A DNA stretch of 64,000 bases from Bacilli bacterium (GTDB lineage: Bacteria > Bacillota_I > Bacilli_A > ML615J-28 > CAG-313): NCBI GenBank assembly GCA_045653225.1, contig JAZOLP010000062.1, forward strand, positions 908 to 64,907, in the 5' to 3' direction. The first letter of the stretch is position 1, and each line of letters starts with the position of its first letter. A program made the translations under genes and the position numbers. The notes under the pieces are model-generated. The model had not been told where the DNA came from. It searched no databases and was given only the letters and a program-made list of their open reading frames with translations. Shown piece after piece: positions 3,187 to 43,829 of this stretch.

Positions 3187-4191
3187 ATGAAACTAGATTA
3201 TACCTTACAAACTGCAGAAGAAAGACTACAGCTTGTAAATCAAATTTTAGAAGAAAATCCAAATCCCAATGAAAAATATCTGGAAATTTTGGCAGATTAT
3301 TTAATCATTGGCTTTGATAAAGATAAAAAACGATTAGTAACACCCAATAGAGAACAAACAATTGCGAAAAGAGAAACTTCTTGGGAAGGACTTGCGGAAC
3401 AGTTTGAGCAAGGTGAGGATTCCATCAATGGGCTTATTCGCAATGATAAACATATTTTATTTCGCCCAAGAGATACAATTACCGATAAAGATGTTGCGGA
3501 AGTTCCTTTCCTTGCGCAAATCCGCGAGACAATCTCTAACTGGGAACAATATATGCGGAAAGCGAGCGGAAGAAGCGCATATCTGGCCAAAACCGCTTTA
3601 ATCGAAACCCGCAAAGAACAATATGCTGTAAAGAATGCGTACCGCAAACCTGTAATTGCAATCGCGCCAATCCACTCAAAAAAACCATTTTATTTAGACG
3701 CAGAAGAAGAATTAGTAAATGGCGATTTGGTCTACAACGCTGCTTCCTTCTGTAATAAAGACCTTATTCTTAATATACTTTGTAATTATGCTCAGTTGCG
3801 CGAGGCCGGTAAAGGTGACTTTAATAGCGATGTGTGGTTCCTCATGGAAGCTTTTGATGAATTGTGCGGCCGTGCCTTAGAAAAAGACTCCTTTTATGAA
3901 AAAGTAATGCGCTACAAGATAGAAGGTAAAACTAACGCAGAAATTAACGAGCTTTTGGGCAATAAACACACAGATGAGTTTTTCTCTGTTGTATGGCGCA
4001 AAAAAATTCCAAAAATTATTGCGGACAGGGCATTTGCGGAAAATCTTATTTGGCTCTGGAGTAAAGATAGTGAACTACCTTGGAAGAAATGCGGCCGTTG
4101 CGGCCAGGAGAAGCCAGCTCACCCATATTTCTTTAGTCGAAATAAAAATAATTTTTATAGTATATGTAAAGAATGTAGAAAAAGAAAATAA
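3187..4191 (+). CDS. hypothetical protein with a C-terminal CxxC...CxxC zinc ribbon and a possible HTH. It may be a DNA-binding or terminase-small-subunit-like protein, but this is unproven.
   Basis: C-terminal CGRCGQEKPAHPYFFSRNKNNFYSICKEC; first gene after the rightward promoter. Confidence 0.5.
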   Translation: MKLDYTLQTAEERLQLVNQILEENPNPNEKYLEILADYLIIGFDKDKKRLVTPNREQTIAKRETSWEGLAEQFEQGEDSINGLIRNDKHILFRPRDTITDKDVAEVPFLAQIRETISNWEQYMRKASGRSAYLAKTALIETRKEQYAVKNAYRKPVIAIAPIHSKKPFYLDAEEELVNGDLVYNAASFCNKDLILNILCNYAQLREAGKGDFNSDVWFLMEAFDELCGRALEKDSFYEKVMRYKIEGKTNAEINELLGNKHTDEFFSVVWRKKIPKIIADRAFAENLIWLWSKDSELPWKKCGRCGQEKPAHPYFFSRNKNNFYSICKECRKRK

Positions 4192-5522: not shown

Positions 5523-7240
5523 TGGCTCTCAGCGATATATTACAAATTTCAGATAGTAAAAAAATAGGTGTTTCAGAAGAAAGAATTAAACCTATATTAC
5601 CAGTCATAAGAGACTATGTATCCTTCTGGCGAGAATACCCAGATATATTCGTAGACCATATGAGTGGCGGCCAGTTCAATTTATTCTTCTATCAGCGTGT
5701 GTTTATGCGCGGAGCCATGCGTCATAAGTATGTCTTCGCGACATTCCCTCGTGCGTTCTCAAAAAGTTTTTTAAGTATTATGCTTTTGATGATTAGGTGT
5801 ATTCTTTACCCTCGTGCGGCATTGTTTGTTACTTCTGGTAATAAAGAGCAATCTGCTAGTATTATTGCGGAAAAGGTAAATGAAATTTGCTTAAAAATTC
5901 CTGCTTTTGATCGAGAAATAGATTATAGCAAAGGTCAAAAAGGTACTCAGTTTAGAAGAGATAAGGTGCGTATCGCATTCAAAAATGGTTCTTATTTTGA
6001 TAATATTGCGGCCCGTGAAAGCTCCAGAGGTCAGCGTCGTCATGGCGGACTTGTAGAAGAATGTGTTGGTGTAGATGGGGAAATCCTATCTTCGGTAATT
6101 ATTCCTACAATGAACGTTGCGCGTCCTTGTATGGATGGTGTTGCAGTACCCGAGGAGACATTGAATAAGTCGCAAATTTATATCACAACCGCGGGTTGGA
6201 AGGGAACATATAGCTACGATAAACTTATCTCGTTTTTGGTGTGTTCAGTCCCGAAGCCGGATAAATATTTTGTAATGGGTGGTACTTATAAGATACCTGT
6301 TATGGAAAAATTGCTTGATGCAAGTTTTATCCAAGATATTCAGAATGAAGGAACTTTTAATGAAGCAGCCTTTGAAAGAGAATATTGTTCTCGTTGGTCT
6401 GGAACCGCGGAAAAGTCTTTCTTTAATGGTGAGGCTTTTGATAAATGTAGACAATTAAAGCAGCCAGAGTATGAAGCTAGCGGGCGCTCAATGAAAGGTT
6501 CATATTATGTGTTTAGTGCGGATATTGGACGTAAATCTGACGCATCTGTTGTTACAATTTTTAAAGTAACTCCGCAACCAACGGGACCTTCTTTAAAGTC
6601 TGTTGTTAATATAAAAACCTGGTCAGACATTCATATTGAAGATCAAATATTAGAATTTAAACGACTATATTTCTTATACAAACCTCGTGCGTTTGTAATT
6701 GATGCCAATGGTATCGGTATTAACTATGTTGACCTTTTGGTTAAAAGTCAAATAGACCCAGAGACGGGAGATGAATTCCCAGGATTTGGCGTAATCAATG
6801 ATAAAGATGGGGAGTATAAAAAATTCCTGTCAAATAGTACAATACGAGATGTCTTATATCTTGTAAAGGCAAACGCGCAATTCAACACAGAGATGTATTC
6901 TAATTTACAAGTTCAAATTAATTCTGGTAAAGTTAAATTTTTAACAGATGAAAGAGTTGCGAAAGCTAAGTTGCTAAATACGCGCAAAGGTGAAGCAATG
7001 TCTCCAGAAGAGAGAGAAAAATATCTTAGACCATTCACATTAACCTCAATTCTTAAAGAAGAAATGATGAATCTAACAGAAGAAAATGAAGGTCAAAATA
7101 TTAGACTTGTAAAAATTAATAAAAGAATTAAAAAAGATAAAGTGTCCAGTCTAGGATATGGACTTTATTATATAAAAACTCAAGAAGAAACAAAGAAGAA
7201 AAAGAAATTCAATGTTCGTGATTATATTAGAATGAATTAA
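5522..7240 (+). CDS. terminase large subunit (putative)
   Basis: 572 aa; a deviant Walker-A-like stretch FPRAFSKSF; a C-terminal RNaseH-like nuclease signature VIDANGIGINYVD; position upstream of the portal. Confidence 0.6.
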   Translation: MALSDILQISDSKKIGVSEERIKPILPVIRDYVSFWREYPDIFVDHMSGGQFNLFFYQRVFMRGAMRHKYVFATFPRAFSKSFLSIMLLMIRCILYPRAALFVTSGNKEQSASIIAEKVNEICLKIPAFDREIDYSKGQKGTQFRRDKVRIAFKNGSYFDNIAARESSRGQRRHGGLVEECVGVDGEILSSVIIPTMNVARPCMDGVAVPEETLNKSQIYITTAGWKGTYSYDKLISFLVCSVPKPDKYFVMGGTYKIPVMEKLLDASFIQDIQNEGTFNEAAFEREYCSRWSGTAEKSFFNGEAFDKCRQLKQPEYEASGRSMKGSYYVFSADIGRKSDASVVTIFKVTPQPTGPSLKSVVNIKTWSDIHIEDQILEFKRLYFLYKPRAFVIDANGIGINYVDLLVKSQIDPETGDEFPGFGVINDKDGEYKKFLSNSTIRDVLYLVKANAQFNTEMYSNLQVQINSGKVKFLTDERVAKAKLLNTRKGEAMSPEEREKYLRPFTLTSILKEEMMNLTEENEGQNIRLVKINKRIKKDKVSSLGYGLYYIKTQEETKKKKKFNVRDYIRMN

Positions 7241-7244
7241 GAAA

Positions 7245-7290
7245 AAAAATGGGCGAAATCGAGCAAACTATTTCGTCCATTTTTTAAATA
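7245..7290 (+). terminator. hairpin AATGGGCGAAA-loop-TTTCGTCCATT flanked by an A-tract and a T-tract (bidirectional-type)
   Basis: 11-bp stem with one G-U pair, followed by TTTTTT. Confidence 0.45.
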
Positions 7291-7315
7291 ATATTAGAAG
7301 ACTGGAGGAATTTTT

Positions 7316-7678
7316 ATGAAAGCTAGTAAAGGTGAAATAAAAATATGTGAAATATTAGAAATGAATGATATTCCATTTGTTGAAGAATATTCTTTCCAAG
7401 GCTTAGTTAGTACCAATGGTAGATTATTAGCTTTTGATTTCGCCGTTTTTGATGATGCAGGTGATTTAGATTTCTTAATTGAATTTCAAGGTAAACAACA
7501 CTATGAACCTGTAAGTAAATTTGGCGGAAAAAGAGGATTATTTCAACAACAACATAATGATAATTTAAAAAGAAGATTTTGTATGAAAAACAATATTAAA
7601 TTAATTGAAATTCCTTACACTGATTATAATTACATTACGTATGATTATATAATGAAAAAAGCAGGTTACTGTGATTGA
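7316..7678 (+). CDS. small Vsr/DUF559-like PD-(D/E)xK endonuclease-fold protein, a free-standing homing-endonuclease-like gene between terL and portal
   Basis: LAFDFAV...LIEFQGKQHY...NDNLKRRFCMKNNIKLIEIPY resembles the D...IExDGxxH...D..R..L...G..V.R pattern. Confidence 0.4.
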   Translation: MKASKGEIKICEILEMNDIPFVEEYSFQGLVSTNGRLLAFDFAVFDDAGDLDFLIEFQGKQHYEPVSKFGGKRGLFQQQHNDNLKRRFCMKNNIKLIEIPYTDYNYITYDYIMKKAGYCD

Positions 7679-9209
7679 GAGAGGAGGAAAATCTTTGGAA
7701 GATAGAGAAATGTATAACTTTTCCAAAATGCAAATTGCATCAAAGAAAATGTTAGATCCTTCTGTTGACTTAAATAGCTTTAAAAAGGTAAATTCTACAT
7801 ATGGTGACAAGACAACTATTATGAAAGCAATTGATCAAAGAAATTATTCAGAATTAAGAAAAATTTCTAGCTTTTACTATGAGGTTAGTGGTATATATCA
7901 AAGACTTTGTAGATACGCGGCTTTCTTATATAGGTATGATTGGTATGTAACTCCAAATACTCTTAAGAAAACAACAAAAGAATTAACAGAAAAGGTTAAA
8001 GGAAAAATTTATGATAACTTTTTTGAAGTTGTTGAGTTTTTGGACAATTCATCTTTAAAACAATTATGCGGCGATATCGCTTTAAAAGTTGTGCGCGATG
8101 GTGTTTACTATGGCTATATTTTAGATAACCAAGAGAAAATAGATTTACAAGCATTGCCGCCAGATTATTGCAGAACTCGTTTCTTTAAAGGTGGAGAACC
8201 AACAGTTGAATTTAATATGAAATATTTTGATGATGCATTTACTGATACTGCGTATAGAATGCAGATTATTAATATGTTTCCAAAAGATTTTAGGAAGGGA
8301 TATATTAAATTTAAAGAACAACAATTAAAAGCTGAATATATGGGAGATAGTGACGGATGGTATTTATTAGACACATCAAGAACTGTAAAATTTAGCTTTA
8401 ACAATATTGAATCTCCATTGTTTATAAATGTAATTCCCGCAATTATTGATTTGGCTGAAGCTCAAGAAATTGATAGAAAAAGAATGATGCAACAGTTAGT
8501 TAAATTGATTATTCAAGAGTTGCCTTTAGATAAAAATGGTGAGTTAATATTTGACCCAGATGAAGCTGCGGATTTGCACAGTGTTGTTGTTGATATGTTA
8601 AAACGCACAGTTGGAACCGATTTAGTTACAACATTTGCAAATATGAAAGCAATTGATTTATCAGATCGTTCTTCGTCAACTTCTATTGATGAATTAGCTA
8701 AAGTTGAGAGAGGAATATTTAATCAATCTGGTGTATCTAACAATTTGTTTAATACAGAAGGTAATACTTCTTTAGACAGAAGTATTTTAAATGACGAGGG
8801 TAGTGGCCGCAACTTACTATTACAGTTTGAGAATTTTTCAAACAAGGGTTTAAGATTGCGCTTCCCAGATAAGAAAAAATATGGTTTTAAAGCTGAATTT
8901 TTAGAAACAACACAATATAATTATAAAGATTTAGCTAAATTATATAAAGAGCAAACTCAGTTAGGTTTTTCTAAAGTATTACCACAAATTGCTCTTGGTC
9001 ATACTCAAATGGAAATTTTACAATCTATTACATTTGAAAATGATATTCTTGAATTATCAAAAATTATGATACCACCAATGATGAGCTCAACAATGAACGC
9101 AGAAACTTTAGCTCAGGTTCATGGAGACAAAAAGTCTGTTGGCGGACAAGAATTACCTGATAATGAAAAAAGTGATAAAACATTAGCAAATAAAGAAGCA
9201 ATGGGTTAA
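7671..9209 (+). CDS. portal protein (putative, assigned by position and size). The start is uncertain; GTG at 7671 and TTG at 7695 are both possible.
   Basis: About 500 aa immediately after the terminase; synteny. Confidence 0.45.
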   Translation: MIERGGKSLEDREMYNFSKMQIASKKMLDPSVDLNSFKKVNSTYGDKTTIMKAIDQRNYSELRKISSFYYEVSGIYQRLCRYAAFLYRYDWYVTPNTLKKTTKELTEKVKGKIYDNFFEVVEFLDNSSLKQLCGDIALKVVRDGVYYGYILDNQEKIDLQALPPDYCRTRFFKGGEPTVEFNMKYFDDAFTDTAYRMQIINMFPKDFRKGYIKFKEQQLKAEYMGDSDGWYLLDTSRTVKFSFNNIESPLFINVIPAIIDLAEAQEIDRKRMMQQLVKLIIQELPLDKNGELIFDPDEAADLHSVVVDMLKRTVGTDLVTTFANMKAIDLSDRSSSTSIDELAKVERGIFNQSGVSNNLFNTEGNTSLDRSILNDEGSGRNLLLQFENFSNKGLRLRFPDKKKYGFKAEFLETTQYNYKDLAKLYKEQTQLGFSKVLPQIALGHTQMEILQSITFENDILELSKIMIPPMMSSTMNAETLAQVHGDKKSVGGQELPDNEKSDKTLANKEAMG

Positions 9210-37624: not shown

Positions 37625-38107
37625 TTAATTTGTTTTCAAACATTCGATAATTCTTTGATTAGCGCTTCCTCGCCATTTCAAAGTTAAATCTTTCTGTTCT
37701 TCGACAAAAGGTCCGTCTATTAAATAATTAATTTTTTCTAATATATTTGTTATATAGATATCTTTTTTAGACATTAATTCTTCTATTGTATATCCTGTCC
37801 AGAGGAATATTTTTATATCTGGATGCGCGGCCCGCACCTTAGAAATTAAATGCGAGACTTCTTTGCGATTTCTCGGATGGAGGGGCTCTCCGCCAAGTAT
37901 ACTTAGGTTACGCTGAATTCCATTAGCAACAAGCGCGTTAAATATTTCTTTTTCAGTAGCCTTTGTATAAACATTTCCGCTCTGAAAATTCCACGCAGCT
38001 TTATTAAAACAACCTGGGCACTGGTGTTCACATCCGCTAACAAAGAGGGAAACGCATATACCCTCTCCGTTAACTATATCATTTGGATTGATAATCATAT
38101 AATTCAT
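37625..38107 (-). CDS. nrdG: anaerobic ribonucleotide reductase activating protein (radical SAM)
   Basis: 160 aa; GCEHQCPGCFN CxxxCxxC cluster; near-collinear with E. coli NrdG, including WTGY and LKWRGS. Confidence 0.8.
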   Translation of the reverse strand: MNYMIINPNDIVNGEGICVSLFVSGCEHQCPGCFNKAAWNFQSGNVYTKATEKEIFNALVANGIQRNLSILGGEPLHPRNRKEVSHLISKVRAAHPDIKIFLWTGYTIEELMSKKDIYITNILEKINYLIDGPFVEEQKDLTLKWRGSANQRIIECLKTN

Positions 38108-38592: not shown

Positions 38593-40788
38593 TTACAGCC
38601 CTCCATGAAATGTTCTGCTTAATATTTCTTGCTTTTGTTCTTTTGTTAGAGAATTAAACAGAACTGCATATCCACTAATTCTAATTGTTAAGTTTGGATA
38701 GCTTTCAGGGTGTTCAATAGCATCTTCTAATGTTTCTTTGTTAAACACATTTACATTAATATGATGTCCATTTTTTTCAAAATATCCATCTAAAATTGTA
38801 CACAAATTATTCACTTGTTCTTTTGTATTTTTACCAAGCACAGAAGGAATAATTGTAAACGTATTTGAAATACCGTCATCACAGAACTGATAAGGTATTT
38901 TCGCAACTGAATTTAAAGAGGCAAGAGCGCCATTTTCTTCTCTTCCGTGGAGTGGGTTCGCGCCAGGAGCAAATGGAGCATATGCCTTTCTACCATCTGG
39001 AGTTGCGCCAGTTTTCTTTCCGTACATAATATTAGATGTTATTGTAAGTATAGATAAAGTTGGTTTTGCGTTTCTATAAAGCCATTGTGCTTCTAAGAAA
39101 TACTTAAAATAAGTAGCAACTTGAAGCCCTAACGCATCTGATTCATCTATATCATTACCATATTTAGGAAAATCGCCTTCAATTTTAAAATCAATAGCAA
39201 TTCCTTCTTCATTTCTTATCGGTATTACTTTTGCGAATTTAATACTTGCTAAACTATCGGACATTACTGAATAGCCTGCAATACCAAAAGCCATTAATCT
39301 ATCTTCTAAATGAGTATCGTGTAGAGCCATTTGAATTGATTCATACGCATACTTATCGTGCATAAAATGAATTACATTATTTGCATCTGAATAAATTCTT
39401 GCCAATTCGCGCAATACATATAAATAATTTTCATAAACTTCTTTAAAATCAAGAGGAGATTTTGTTAATTTTGGAACACCTTTAATTACTAATTCTCCTG
39501 TTCTTTCGTCTTTACCCTCGTTAATTGCATATAATAGAGCCTTGGCTAAATTACATCTTGCACCGAAGAATTGCATTTGTTTACCAGTTTTCATCGCAGA
39601 AACGCAACAAGCAATAGAATAATCATTTCCATATTTTGGTCTCATTAAATCATCATTCTCATATTGAATTGCACAAGTCTTAATAGACATTTCTGCACAA
39701 TATTTTTTAAAGTTTTCAGGTAGCTTTTCGCTCCATAAAACAGTTAAATTTGGTTCTGGTGCCGCACCTAAATGCTCTAGCGCGTGTAAAAATCTAAAAG
39801 AAGTTTTTGTTACTAATGATTGTTCATCGTTAAGCATACCACCTATTGCTTCAGTTACCCAAGTAGGATCTCCTGCGAATAATTCATCATAAGCAGAAGT
39901 GCGCAAATGACGAATAAATCTTAATTTTATAATAAACTGATCTATTAACTCTTGAGCTTCTTGCTCGGATATAATATCATTTTTTAAATCATTCTCAATA
40001 TAAATATCAATAAAAGTTGATACTCTGCCGAGAGAGGTTGCCGCGCCATTACTTTCTTTTGCACCAGCAAGATAAGCAAAATAAATTGCTTGAATTGCGT
40101 CTCTCGCGTTTGTAGCTGGCTTGTTAATCATAATACCATATCTGGCCGCCATTGTTGTTAATTCGCGCAATGCTTTAATTTGCATAGATACTTCTTCTCT
40201 TAATTGTATATCACGCATATCTAAATTTGCAAAATCTTTTTGCTTTTGTTCGATTAAATAATCTGTGCCATAAAGTGCTACTCTGCGATAGTCTCCTATG
40301 ATGCGGCCGCGTCCATAGGCATCTGGTAAGCCAGTTATTAACCCATTGTGTCTAGCTTTAAGAACTTCTTCTGAATAAGCATCAAATACTCCTTCATTAT
40401 GAGTTTTTCTAAATTGGTGAAACAAATCTAATTCATAAGGAGTTGTTAAATCGTGTTCTCGCAAACATTGCTTAACCATTCTTATTCCACCGTATGGGTT
40501 AATGATTCTTTTAAGTGGGGTATCTGTTTGAAGCCCCACTATTACTTCATTATCTTTATCTATATAGCCAGGTTGAAAATTATCTATTCCAGAAAACGCT
40601 TCTGTTTCAATATCTAATACTCCACCTGCTTCTTGTTCTTGTCTTAATAAATCTTTACATTTATCCCATAATTTTTGAGTTTTTTCTGTTATTGGTTGAA
40701 GAAAACTACTGTCTCCTAAATATTCAGTATAATTATTCTCAATAAATTTATTTACATTAATAGACATTGATTTTCCTCCTTTTCTCAA
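38593..40788 (-). CDS. pflB: pyruvate formate-lyase (formate C-acetyltransferase, glycyl radical enzyme)
   Basis: 731 aa, near-collinear with E. coli PflB. Active-site IACCVS is present, followed by [24 protein letters not shown]. The C-terminal glycyl-radical motif is [40 protein letters not shown] is also present. Confidence 0.85.
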
Positions 40789-41753
40789 AATTTATGTTTT
40801 ACTCTTAATTCTGTTTCTTGAACTTTTCCTTTATTAAATGCAGTTGTATAATTTCCTGTCAAATAACCTGTTACTCTTCTTAACTGTTGAATGTGTTCAC
40901 TACCGCACACAGGGCAGTATTTATTAAACTCGTCTAAATATCCACAATCCAAGCAAGCGTCATTTGGGACATTGATCGCGAAATAAGGTATATCCTTGTC
41001 CATAGCATAATTTATAATTTGCTCAATTGCAGATAAGTTATTTTTAACACTACCATCTAACTCTACATAAGTAATACATCCCGCACTTGAATAACCAGTT
41101 AATTGAGATTCTATGTCAATTTTATCAAATGGTGACATTTCTTTCCAAACTGGAACATGCATCGAATTAGTAAAGAATGCTTTATCACTAACATTTTCGA
41201 TTACTCCATATTTATCTTTAAATTTTTGCATAGCAGTAAAACAAAGATTTTCTGCAGGAGTATAATATACACCAAAGTTAAGTTTATACTCTTCTTTGAA
41301 TGAAGCGCATTTATCTTTAAATAATTGTTCAATTCTTTTAGCCAATACCATACCCTCTTCAGTTGTATGGTCTGTACCAATTAAAATTTGAAGTGTTTCC
41401 GCAAGACCAAGTTGCCCAATCGCAAGAGTTCCGTGTTTGAGTGCGCTTCTAATTCCCTCTTCTGGCACATAACCAGCCATTAAATTATTTTCATACATAA
41501 ATTTGGCTGAGTCTGGACTTTGCGAACAAATATATTCAAATCTTTCTAATAAGATGTCTTTTGCGTCGTGAATTTTTCTATTTAAAAGATTTAAGAATAC
41601 TACTTCTAAATCTTCTTCTTGTCCTTCTTCCTCACACATTTCTTTAGCCATCATAGCCAATGTAGGAAGAATAATTGTTACAGGACATATATTACCTCTA
41701 CCATCTTTAAGCTGGCCAAAACCATTAATATCCCAGCCGTTTGCCGTTCTGCA
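40785..41753 (-). CDS. nrdD: anaerobic ribonucleoside-triphosphate reductase, exon 2 (C-terminal part, beginning CRTANGWD)
   Basis: C-terminal Zn ribbon CLDCG...CPVCG and glycyl-radical motif RRVTGYLTG. The conserved MGCR motif is reconstituted only when joined to exon 1. Confidence 0.75.
40828..40857. repeat. left copy of the 30-nt direct repeat. It lies inside the intact nrdD 3-prime end and encodes [11 protein letters not shown].
   Basis: See the paired repeat at 38519-38550. Confidence 0.7.
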
Positions 41754-42575
41754 CATGTTAATCCGATGTTACCATCGGCACTGACTATATCTTCTCCAAT
41801 TATTTGGAGTCTTCCGCTTCGAATGTGCGCCTATCTCACATTCTACTCCCTTACATTCATCAGGGATAGTCGATACACTTTATTCATTATAATATTCAAA
41901 AATCCAAGTATTTTTATATGGACTTTTTACTTGTCCATTGAGTCGAGTGGTAATAGAAGTTTTTCCATTTTGTATTCCGCAGGCTCTGGCGCAACCAATT
42001 ACTGTATCGAAAATATCAACTTCATTTGTAATTATATTGGTTCGTTTGACTTTTTGAGCCATCGGGTTTTTCCCACCCAATTTTGTTTGTCTAATTTTTT
42101 CTTTAATTTCATTCATTTCTTCATCTGTTTTAGAAAGATATGTATTTCCACCGCATTTATAAATAGCGCTAGTTTCATTATATCCCTCTTTAACAGCATT
42201 ATAAAATTGAATCCAATATTGCTCTTTGAAATTTAATTCTTCTTGATTTTCTGCTGTATCAATTTCTTCTATAACAAAATTTTCTTTGCCGTATTTTCTA
42301 ATTGCTCGAGCAAAATGCGTATCAAGAATGTTATTTAATGCGTCATTTATATGACGATGAAATCTTGCTTCGATAGGCCTAATACTTTGACCTATATATA
42401 CTTTGTTGTTTTGAATATTTGTAATTTTATATATCCACATAGAAACTCCTTTCTATTGAATATTATAATGAATCTTAGCACGGTCTCATCCACGTGGGAC
42501 CTAACCGTTAGCCCGCAATCGCGGACACCCTCGGGCGAGGTTCAAAAGATTTTACATGGGCTGTAGTTTTCACTT
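41754..42575 (-). mobile_element. group I intron (822 nt) interrupting nrdD, carrying a GIY-YIG homing endonuclease ORF
   Basis: In-frame junction ...ATG GGT | intron | TGC AGA... The exon ends in U and the intron ends in G. GC-rich structured segments flank the ORF at both ends, with GACTA in the 3-prime part. There is an internal RBS for the endonuclease. The split falls exactly in the conserved NrdD MG|CR motif. Confidence 0.7.
41880..42440 (-). CDS. GIY-YIG homing endonuclease encoded within the intron
   Basis: WIYKITNIQNNKVYIGQS GIY-YIG motif; downstream R, H and N catalytic residues; basic C-terminal DNA-binding region. Confidence 0.75.
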   Translation of the reverse strand: MWIYKITNIQNNKVYIGQSIRPIEARFHRHINDALNNILDTHFARAIRKYGKENFVIEEIDTAENQEELNFKEQYWIQFYNAVKEGYNETSAIYKCGGNTYLSKTDEEMNEIKEKIRQTKLGGKNPMAQKVKRTNIITNEVDIFDTVIGCARACGIQNGKTSITTRLNGQVKSPYKNTWIFEYYNE

Positions 42576-43829
42576 ACCCATTGTGCTCATATATGTTCTA
42601 GGGTCGTCAGGATCGTATCCAGCATTGCCGCTCCAATCTACATTACAGTAATTTGGATATAATCTTGTTGCAGTTGATTTAAGAGCCAACTGATATAAAT
42701 CATAATTAGGGGTACCTGGTTTATCATTTACACCTTTCATATATTGAAAAATTTGACAAGGGAAAACAGATGTTCTATGCGATTTTCCAAGTCCTTCAAT
42801 TGTTCCTTCTAAAATAGCTTTTGTAACCATTCTTCCCTCAACTAGAGTACAAGTACCATAGTTAATTGAACTAAATGGAAGCTGATTTCCGCTACGAGAT
42901 TGTAAAGTATTAAGATTATGAAGCATACCTTCAACTGCTTGTTTTAATTCTCTTTCTGTCATATCCATAGCATATATATAAACATTTGGAAAATAATTTA
43001 TATAACATTCGTTAAATATAGAAGTTTCATTTGTTACGTAGTTAAATACTACTGCATCATACGGATTTTCAAACATTTCAATATATTTTAAACCATCCAC
43101 ATAGTGCTTATAGAAACTTTTTCTTACATACGGAACCATACTCCAATCCAAGTGAGAACAACTTACACCGCCAAACTGTTGTAAACTTTGTATCTGAAAA
43201 ATAACTGCCAATAGTTGAAATGCTGTATTGATTGAACTTGCGGGGCGCACATCTGTTTGTCTCGTATTGAAACCATTCGCAAGTAAATGATCAATAGGAA
43301 CAGTTAAACAGTTATGATTACCAAGTACATATTGATCTAGGTCGTGAGTATAAATTTTATTATTAAGATGATTATCTTTTGTTTTTTTGCTTACTAAATA
43401 ATTTAAAGCGTAGTCTTTATTCATTACGCTCGCGGCTTCGCCATTTCTTCCACCGAAAGATTTTTCATCTACATTTGCATTTTGATTTTTAATATCTTGT
43501 GCTTGAAGCTTTTTACCTATCTCTTTATGTAACGCGCTTTTCGCATTACGAGCAATACTTCTTTTTTCTCTATATATAATATAAGCTTTTGCAACATCTA
43601 ATCTTTCACTTTGCATAAGCTTTTGCTCAACTAAATCTTGTATTTTTTCTATATCCCAATCACTTACATAGTGAGTATATTCTTCATAGATTTCTTCTGC
43701 GATATCTTGAGCAATTTCCTCTGAATAAATTTGTCCATCTACTTCTTCAAAAGCTTTATTTATTGCTTTTATAATATTGTCTTTACAAAACTCTACAAGA
43801 GTTCCGTCTCTTTTAATTATCATCTTCAT
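42576..43829 (-). CDS. nrdD: anaerobic ribonucleoside-triphosphate reductase, exon 1 (N-terminal part with an ATP-cone). The ORF track runs on to a stop at 42570 inside the intron.
   Basis: IIKRDGTLVEFCKDNIIKAI ATP-cone; the exon ends ...YMSTMG. Confidence 0.75.

Follow-up and report, generated by a model that had tools for sequence, protein, structure and literature searches.

A probable group IA2 intron with a GIY-YIG endonuclease gene in the Met-Gly-Cys motif of a phage nrdD

Introns and inteins in the ribonucleotide reductase (RNR) genes of phages are classic, and selfish elements target the most conserved catalytic codons. A survey of 128 phage genomes reports 16 with split RNR genes, among which nrdD is split most often (PMC3653736). 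In gut jumbo ('Jug') phages, nrdD is described as fragmented by group I introns, endonucleases and intein-like inserts, with metatranscriptome reads supporting splicing (PMC12880540), and the bnrdE and bnrdF genes of SPbeta are cited for a coincidence of introns and inteins (Lazarevic et al. 1998; Derbyshire and Belfort 1998, cited in PMC3653736). Here we analyze an insert of 822 nucleotides (nt) that separates the two halves of an nrdD gene in a 64,000-nt stretch of DNA (contig JAZOLP010000062.1, positions 908 to 64,907; hereafter the window). A sequence-only reading of this DNA had proposed a group I intron carrying a GIY-YIG homing endonuclease gene, and had added that the phenomenon is not new, a caution borne out by the split phage nrdD genes already documented (PMC3653736, PMC12880540).

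All features described for this locus, including the split nrdD gene, the insert and the endonuclease open reading frame (ORF), lie on the minus strand of the window. From comparative sequence and structure analysis, we put the probability that positions 41754-42575 are a splicing group I intron at about 90%. Its helices assign it to subgroup IA2, to which the td, nrdB and sunY introns of T4 belong. About 40 independent viral metagenome contigs carry this insert at the very same phosphodiester bond, an arrangement far beyond chance. What is new is a widespread, uncharacterized family of IA2 introns and endonucleases at a new nrdD site; our current understanding of group I introns is unchanged by the finding.

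Two halves of one nrdD

The insert is flanked by two ORFs. The first (42570-43829) encodes 419 amino acids (aa) ending in ...DPRTYMSTMG-K-stop, and matches the Pfam ATP-cone (E=3e-21) and positions 2-260 of the NRDD profile, which has a length of 562. The second (40785-41756; 323 aa) begins with M-CRTANGWD and matches NRDD positions 264-562 together with Gly_radical. Because these Pfam coordinates are complementary, the two ORFs are halves of one NrdD; placement on the profile thus disposes of the alternative that they are independent paralogues. Consistent with this, 63 uninterrupted homologues are colinear across ATGGGN|TGYMGN and show the STMG|CRT sequence that the junction restores.

Removal of exactly 822 nt (41754-42575) joins ...ACA AUG GGU to UGC AGA ACG..., read as STMG|CRTANG, and produces an NrdD of 740 aa; the predicted ligated junction is ...ACAAUGGGU joined to UGCAGAACG. 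Exon 1 (42576-43829; 418 codons) holds the ATP-cone and the N-terminal half of the protein and ends in ...STMG with the codon GGU. Exon 2 (40785-41753) opens with the Cys codon UGC (CRTANGWD...) and encodes the C-terminal half, including the Zn ribbon and the glycyl-radical site. The sequence-only reading had likewise made one NrdD of the two ORFs by removing 822 nt, with a terminal U in the last exon-1 codon (GGT), a terminal G in the insert and CRTANGWD resuming in exon 2, and each of these particulars holds. Its remark that the insert has GC-rich ends also stands: the G+C content is 45% and 43% in the two flanks, 29% in the internal ORF and 32% in the whole window.

Both annotated ORF ends at the insert are artefacts of the insertion, since the insert begins with the six bases of the Lys and stop codons that close the exon-1 ORF and finishes with the three that encode the Met of the exon-2 ORF (A-U-G, the G being the terminal G). 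This bears on the possibility that an endonuclease cassette split nrdD and that the halves, with no splicing, yield two polypeptides that come together as an active enzyme. There are indeed two callable ORFs, the second starting with ATG, and a functional split NrdA has been described in Aeromonas phage Aeh1 (PMC3653736). Yet the exon-2 ATG is lent by the intron and is missing in 26 of 40 copies, which end in ACG or GCG, so that exon 2 itself supplies no conserved start codon; nor is a ribosome-binding site seen ahead of it in the window sequence. Moreover, the non-coding flanks form the conserved, covarying ribozyme core described below, for which a plain cassette has no need, and ORF-less copies of 269-330 nt still hold the site and retain the ribozyme. 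We therefore regard separate translation as very improbable.

A covarying ribozyme core

The predicted IA2 intron (41754-42575; 822 nt) starts with AAGUGAAAAC and ends in ...UUAACAUG; its terminal base is G, as it is in all 40 copies. The internal guide sequence (42556-42566) contains GCCCAU (intron nt 15-20), which pairs with exon AUGGGU to form P1 and places a U.G wobble at the splice site, and CUACA (nt 10-14), which forms P10 with exon-2 UGCAG. The six pairs of P1 are 100% paired in 27 sequences, with an invariant U.G and a GC/GU alternation at one pair. P10 has four of its five pairs in the window copy and is 88% paired overall; it is perfect in relatives with a UGU codon, and one locus (L013) offers a compensatory case. 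Like the terminal G, P1 with its U.G wobble and P10 are features of all 40 copies.

P3 is formed by UCUUUUG (42543-42549) and CGGAAGA (41810-41816). Its seven pairs are 100% paired, and three of them show changes on both sides, as in CCUCGUG/CGCGAGG. An assignment of P3 to CCGC...GCGG, tried first, was ruled out, as these strands form a local hairpin that covaries alone. As in sunY, P1 is followed by P3 with no intervening P2. Two extra hairpins, CCUC-GCCC-GAGG and CCGC-GAUU-GCGG (42513-42540), for which P3.1 and P3.2 are our own labels, separate the 5' strand of P3 from P4. Both covary, with double changes in 3/4 and 4/4 pairs, and T4 sunY has neither. In the literature searched for hairpins between P3 and P4, the single mention was of 'P3.1' in a list of optional group I intron pairings (PMC3873408), and nothing else on hairpins at this position was found. 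The family may represent a distinct IA2 architecture, with no P2 and with two covarying hairpins between the P3 5' strand and P4.

P4 (ACGGU/ACCGU), which is invariant, encloses P5 (GUCC-CACGU-GGAU), in which three pairs show double changes (42480-42508 for both). P6 is a 12-base-pair helix of AUUCAUUAUAAU (42462-42473) with AUUAUAAUGAAU (41882-41893); it is 99.7% paired and has six pairs with double changes, and the covariation extends to L038, where a different protein C-terminus is met by a compensating 5' strand. The 3' half of the core (41783-41871) comprises P7 (GACUAU/AUAGUC), P7.1, P7.2, P3', P8 and J8/7 (GAAGAUAUAGUC). P7.1 (CCCU/AGGG) is identical to that of sunY, P7.2 (GAAUGUG/CACAUUC) has five pairs changed on both sides, and P8 also covaries. 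The presence of both extra helices between P7 and P3' places the intron in subgroup IA (IA2, T4-like). The P9 hairpin (CCGAUG-GUAA-CAUCGG; 41763-41778) has six pairs, 100% paired and four with double changes, and its loop is GNRA in every relative.

To quantify this structure, we used an alignment (A1) of 27 distinct copies from which the ORF was removed except for its last 27 nt. Over 76 counted pairs, 96.0% of the cells are paired, compared with 37-43% when the partners are slid by 1-3 columns. Pairs changed on both sides number 33 (6-11 in the slid controls), the covariation score is 0.337 (0.05-0.07 when slid), and none of 500 shuffles attained the observed structure values. Several compensatory pairs are found in each of P3, P5, P6, P7.2, P8, P9 and the two extra hairpins. 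Furthermore, the 30-nt core motif CGACUAUCCCUGAUGAAUGUAAGGGAGUAG, which spans P7 and P7.1, is identical in the self-splicing T4 sunY (nrdD) intron, as is the J8/7-P7 segment GAAGAUAUAGUC. The minimum free energy fold of the ORF-deleted intron reaches -99.1 kcal/mol against -70.4 for shuffles (z=-5.45) and recovers all helices read by hand except the pseudoknotted P7. Taken together, P1 with its U.G, P10, the terminal G, a covarying P3-P9 core with a P3/P7 pseudoknot and the 30 nt shared with sunY agree with the group I identity first suggested for the insert.

These features also speak to whether the insert could be an intein or a group II intron. Four relatives (L126 and L135-L137) do carry an intein-like insert at the exact junction. 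The insert of the window, however, is out of frame with the exons and meets a stop two codons in; it lacks Hint and intein matches, a reverse transcriptase and a domain V, and it contains a group I core. We give this explanation almost no weight.

We infer that the 822-nt group I intron is spliced, and its pairings suggest how. The transcribed RNA would fold into the P1-P10 core, and an external guanosine would attack 3' of the final U in the Gly codon GGU, which the guide GCCCAU holds in P1. The freed exon would then attack after the terminal G and join GGU to UGC, which would restore the 740-aa NrdD with an intact Met-Gly-Cys finger loop.

The endonuclease and its mobility

The loop of P6 contains an ORF for a 186-aa protein (41880-42440), with the ribosome-binding site AAAGGAG 7 nt upstream of its ATG. 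The protein scores 32.3 bits with Pfam GIY-YIG (PF01541; cut-off 22.6), so both the internal ribosome-binding site and the GIY-YIG identity noted earlier for this ORF were correctly read. Residues 3-93 align with the catalytic domain of I-TevI (PDB 1MK0, 1LN0) at E about 1e-5 (8e-6). The residues Y4, Y15, R26, H30, E73 and N88 correspond to the I-TevI catalytic residues Y6, Y17, R27, H31, E75 and N90, all of them conserved, in support of a homing endonuclease. Over residues 3-184 the protein matches phrog_314, 'homing endonuclease' (E=5e-24), and residues 100-186 are conserved in relatives. Among sequenced phages there are no close relatives (identity <46%), and an exact-sequence look-up of the endonuclease returned no record. 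That this copy encodes a currently active endonuclease is probable, although our confidence here is somewhat lower than for the intron itself. Being I-TevI-like and having a defined natural target, the enzyme might be put to use as a nuclease domain or specificity module.

The coding sequence and the ribozyme overlap. The final three sense codons of the ORF (Y-N-E), together with the first base of its stop codon, make up the 3' strand of P6, so that ribosomes finishing the ORF must unwind P6. We speculate that endonuclease translation and ribozyme folding or splicing compete. At the other end of the ORF, the ribosome-binding site lies in a possible 7-base-pair hairpin, AUAGAAA-GGAG-UUUCUAU (42439-42456), read from the sequence, which overlaps the AU of the start codon and is found only in a subset of relatives (L031-L037); a regulatory role for it is likewise speculative.

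T4 intron ORFs have endonuclease-specific promoters. In the window intron, a promoter-like site (42462-42489; ATGAGA, 16 nt, TATAAT) lies about 25 nt upstream of the endonuclease ribosome-binding site, with its -10 hexamer inside the P6 5' strand. A scan for promoters and terminators gave 8 matches against 11.3 expected from shuffles, so the TATAAT in P6 is no more than a lead for such a promoter and carries no weight. I-TevI cleaves at a CNNNG motif located 23-27 nt upstream of the point where its intron is inserted. At 23-27 nt upstream of the insertion in the window, exon 1 has CCUAG (42598-42602), which fits CNNNG, a motif that is common by chance.

To examine how the element is distributed, we searched IMG/VR with the endonuclease and obtained 59 loci, of which 39 have the identical intron site ATGGGT | intron ... 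G | TG(T/C). Identity across these loci is 63-84% for the endonuclease but only 56-79% for the NrdD around it. In 78 further nrdD relatives, the site is uninterrupted in 63 (for example L064, with the junction ...AGTACGATGGGT|TGTAGAACTGCA...), occupied by an ORF-less intron of 269-330 nt in 8 and by an ORF-bearing intron in 2; one carries an intron of the type found in phage TR-TP1 (see below) and 4 an intein. One locus, L059, has an internally deleted endonuclease ORF. Such a mixture of empty sites with full, ORF-decayed and ORF-less elements is the pattern expected of a homing element, and from it we infer that the insert is mobile. In a mixed infection, the endonuclease, made from its own ribosome-binding site in the P6 loop, would cut intron-less nrdD alleles near ATGGGN|TGYMGN, and repair from the intron-bearing copy would spread the intron.

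Several observations weigh against a splicing, mobile intron. The window copy has one mismatch in P10. P4 and P7 are invariant, so these two helices are backed by their position and their similarity to sunY and not by covariation. The Rfam family RF00028 (Intron_gpI), whose gathering score is 50 bits, reached only 21-27 bits. In standard mode there was no match in the whole window or in the ORF-less relatives, and a permissive scan found none in the whole insert; its 5' part alone gave none either. Permissive matches were obtained with the 3' 141 nt (21.4 bits, E=8e-4, spanning P7, P3', P8, P7' and P9) and with the ORF-less copy L125 of 269 nt (27.1 bits, E=3.4e-5, across the full model). The Rfam comparison, suggested as a check by the sequence-only reading, was thus positive only weakly, at a level short of the family threshold. 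The low score of the window copy is probably due to the 561-nt ORF in P6 and the extra hairpins, and that of L125 we attribute to the generality of the model. With regard to homing, no Pfam DNA-binding module was found in the endonuclease, even at E up to 10, and exon identity near and far from the site in intron-plus/intron-minus pairs differed little, with no clear signal of co-conversion.

The P10 mismatch and the Rfam scores could also indicate a decayed intron, that is, a copy that splices inefficiently, leaving nrdD a pseudogene or dependent on a host or phage protein cofactor. Against this, every core helix is intact in the window copy, both exons have open frames with Pfam matches along their whole length, an nrdG activase gene persists nearby, and the intron family is under clear structural selection. 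We consider decay unlikely and favor a group I intron that splices. The roughly 50 covarying copies, with and without the ORF, provide a ready seed alignment for a subgroup-specific covariance model, which would be useful because the general Rfam model misses this family.

Further observations concern the relatives. A covariance model of the IA2 3' half (R1) identified one to three extra related intron cores in nrdD exon 1 of L018, L019, L022, L034, L038, L045, L085, L088 and L098 (in L022, for example, at 1454-1579, 1878-2003 and 3562-3728), indicating that some of these genes carry three or four introns. In agreement, exon 1 of these relatives falls into two to four tblastn pieces. In the window itself, a pattern search and R1 gave only the nrdD copy as an intron.

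In seven loci (L006, L008, L010, L011, L027, L034 and L041), the in-frame stops of the endonuclease are all TAG, often at positions where relatives have Gln, and the nrdD exons also contain in-frame TAGs, mostly aligned with Gln. The window endonuclease copy has no in-frame stops. These TAGs suggest that the loci belong to TAG-recoded phages, which would share the intron and endonuclease with standard-code phages and suggest homing across genetic codes. Two of the seven (L006 and L010) have an extra insert in the P6 loop upstream of the endonuclease gene, with a small ORF starting ATGAGAGGATATAAATTAAC..., while in L008 the loop of the second extra hairpin takes up about 200 nt of AT-rich sequence that includes an ATG. 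Intron loops evidently tolerate cargo.

Genomic setting, insertion site and known systems

The window is the genome of an uncultivated low-GC phage with an SPbeta-like DNA polymerase. Its structural module is on the plus strand, and the module for replication and nucleotide metabolism is on the minus strand, in the order guanylate kinase, split nrdD, a 731-aa pyruvate-formate-lyase (PFL)-like enzyme, a small ORF, an NrdG-type activase and dUTPase. A PolIII-alpha gene lies upstream, and its product is 39% identical to SPbeta YorL. Judged by NrdD (67.5% identity), the closest sequenced phages are the Thomasclavelia phages TR-TP1 and TR-TP2 from human faeces; a megablast of the locus against sequenced phages gave no match.

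The PFL-like glycyl-radical enzyme (38593-40788, minus strand; PFL-like E=1.6e-186, plus Gly_radical) is encoded directly downstream of nrdD, with a TTG start that overlaps the stop codon of nrdD, and the NrdG-type activase gene (37625-38107) follows further downstream. The enzyme matches phrog_21327, of unknown function. None of 139 related loci has its gene, which may be an auxiliary metabolic gene whose product shares the activase. In a related contig (L125), a tRNA gene (6371-6442; 61 bits) lies about 2.9 kilobases (kb) downstream of nrdD.

The insertion falls between Gly and Cys419, the first exon-2 codon, and Cys419 aligns with T4 NrdD Cys290 in SPMGCRS, which places the intron in the conserved MG|CR box, just where the sequence-only reading had put it. 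We take Cys290 to be the finger-loop Cys of the T4 enzyme, with the number coming from the alignment; searches for this residue number found nothing in the literature covered. The RNR finger loop holds a conserved Cys that starts catalysis, and in class III enzymes the finger-loop Met pairs with a second active-site Cys (PMC4493059).

Other elements are found at the same motif. L135 (2610-3500), L136, L137 and L126 (2607-3500) have an in-frame insert of 297-298 aa at the identical Gly|Cys junction, STMG|ALSGHEHL...SDIIMHN|CRTANG. The insert begins with Ala and ends with His-Asn, the catalytic Cys being the +1 residue; in Pfam it contains GIY-YIG (28.4 bits, above cut-off) along with weak Intein_splicing and HINT matches. 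It is a candidate intein with a GIY-YIG nuclease domain, which would be unusual. A specific relationship between this GIY-YIG domain and the intron endonuclease was rejected (E=0.3). The intron and the intein thus share the exact junction in different phages, and an HNH intron lies 4 nt upstream in relatives. The finger-loop Gly|Cys bond of NrdD may be a hot spot that three kinds of element, a GIY-YIG intron, an HNH intron and an intein, have taken independently. The finger-loop Met-Gly-Cys of a glycyl-radical RNR, with an intron and an intein at the same bond, offers a clean example of site choice. We give slightly less than an even chance to the reading in which the IA2 architecture, the Gly|Cys hot spot and homing across genetic codes are undescribed.

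Among known systems, the T4 sunY (nrdD) intron with I-TevII is similar in many respects: it interrupts the same gene, belongs to the same IA2 subgroup, has P7.1 and P7.2 and no P2, and encodes a GIY-YIG endonuclease. Besides the identical 30 nt over P7/P7.1 and the identical J8/7, its P9 is similar. However, the sunY site (AYE|YEV) maps to about residue 304 of the window NrdD, whereas the window intron lies at 418/419. In sunY the ORF follows P9, close to the 3' end of the intron; in the window intron it occupies the P6 loop. The two hairpins that the window intron has between P3 and P4 are missing from sunY. Apart from their common fold, the endonucleases show no relationship (E=1.5 for the comparison with I-TevII). 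Orthology with sunY/I-TevII was therefore rejected on the grounds of the different site and the unrelated endonuclease.

T4 td is a group IA2 intron whose endonuclease ORF is looped out from the P6 region, and it has a P2. Its endonuclease, I-TevI, is the protein whose catalytic domain aligns with the window endonuclease, but its host gene encodes thymidylate synthase and not NrdD. I-TevI is 245 aa long, with a zinc finger and a helix-turn-helix in its DNA-binding region, whereas in the 186-aa window protein no such module was recognized.

In TR-TP1 and TR-TP2 (PQ571309, PQ571310), a group I-like insert bearing an endonuclease ORF likewise interrupts the Met-Gly-Cys motif of nrdD. In these phages and in L072, the splice site lies 4 nt further upstream and divides the Met codon behind its AU. 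The insert measures about 865-890 nt and ends in G (in L001, which is TR-TP1, it spans 7242-8129). Unlike the window intron, it has a canonical P2, together with P3 CUCAUC/GAUGAG and P7 GACUAUC/GAUAUAGUC, and its endonuclease is of the HNH/NUMOD4 type, the pieces being listed in GenBank as separate coding sequences. With model R1, its core is distantly similar to that of the window intron (14 bits, E=0.36). For annotation, two 'NrdD-like' ORFs and a 'hypothetical' endonuclease would become one spliced gene and a mobile element, in the window as well as in the deposited TR-TP1 and TR-TP2.

The Jug phages are a different group, with genomes of 360-402 kb, Bacteroides hosts and introns that are mostly about 206 nt long and without ORFs. 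In SPbeta bnrdE and bnrdF, introns and inteins occupy conserved catalytic motifs of RNR genes, as they do here, and the polymerase of the window phage is YorL-like. The SPbeta case, however, concerns a class Ib RNR, whereas here the enzyme is of class III, and intron and intein occupy the identical junction in different phages.

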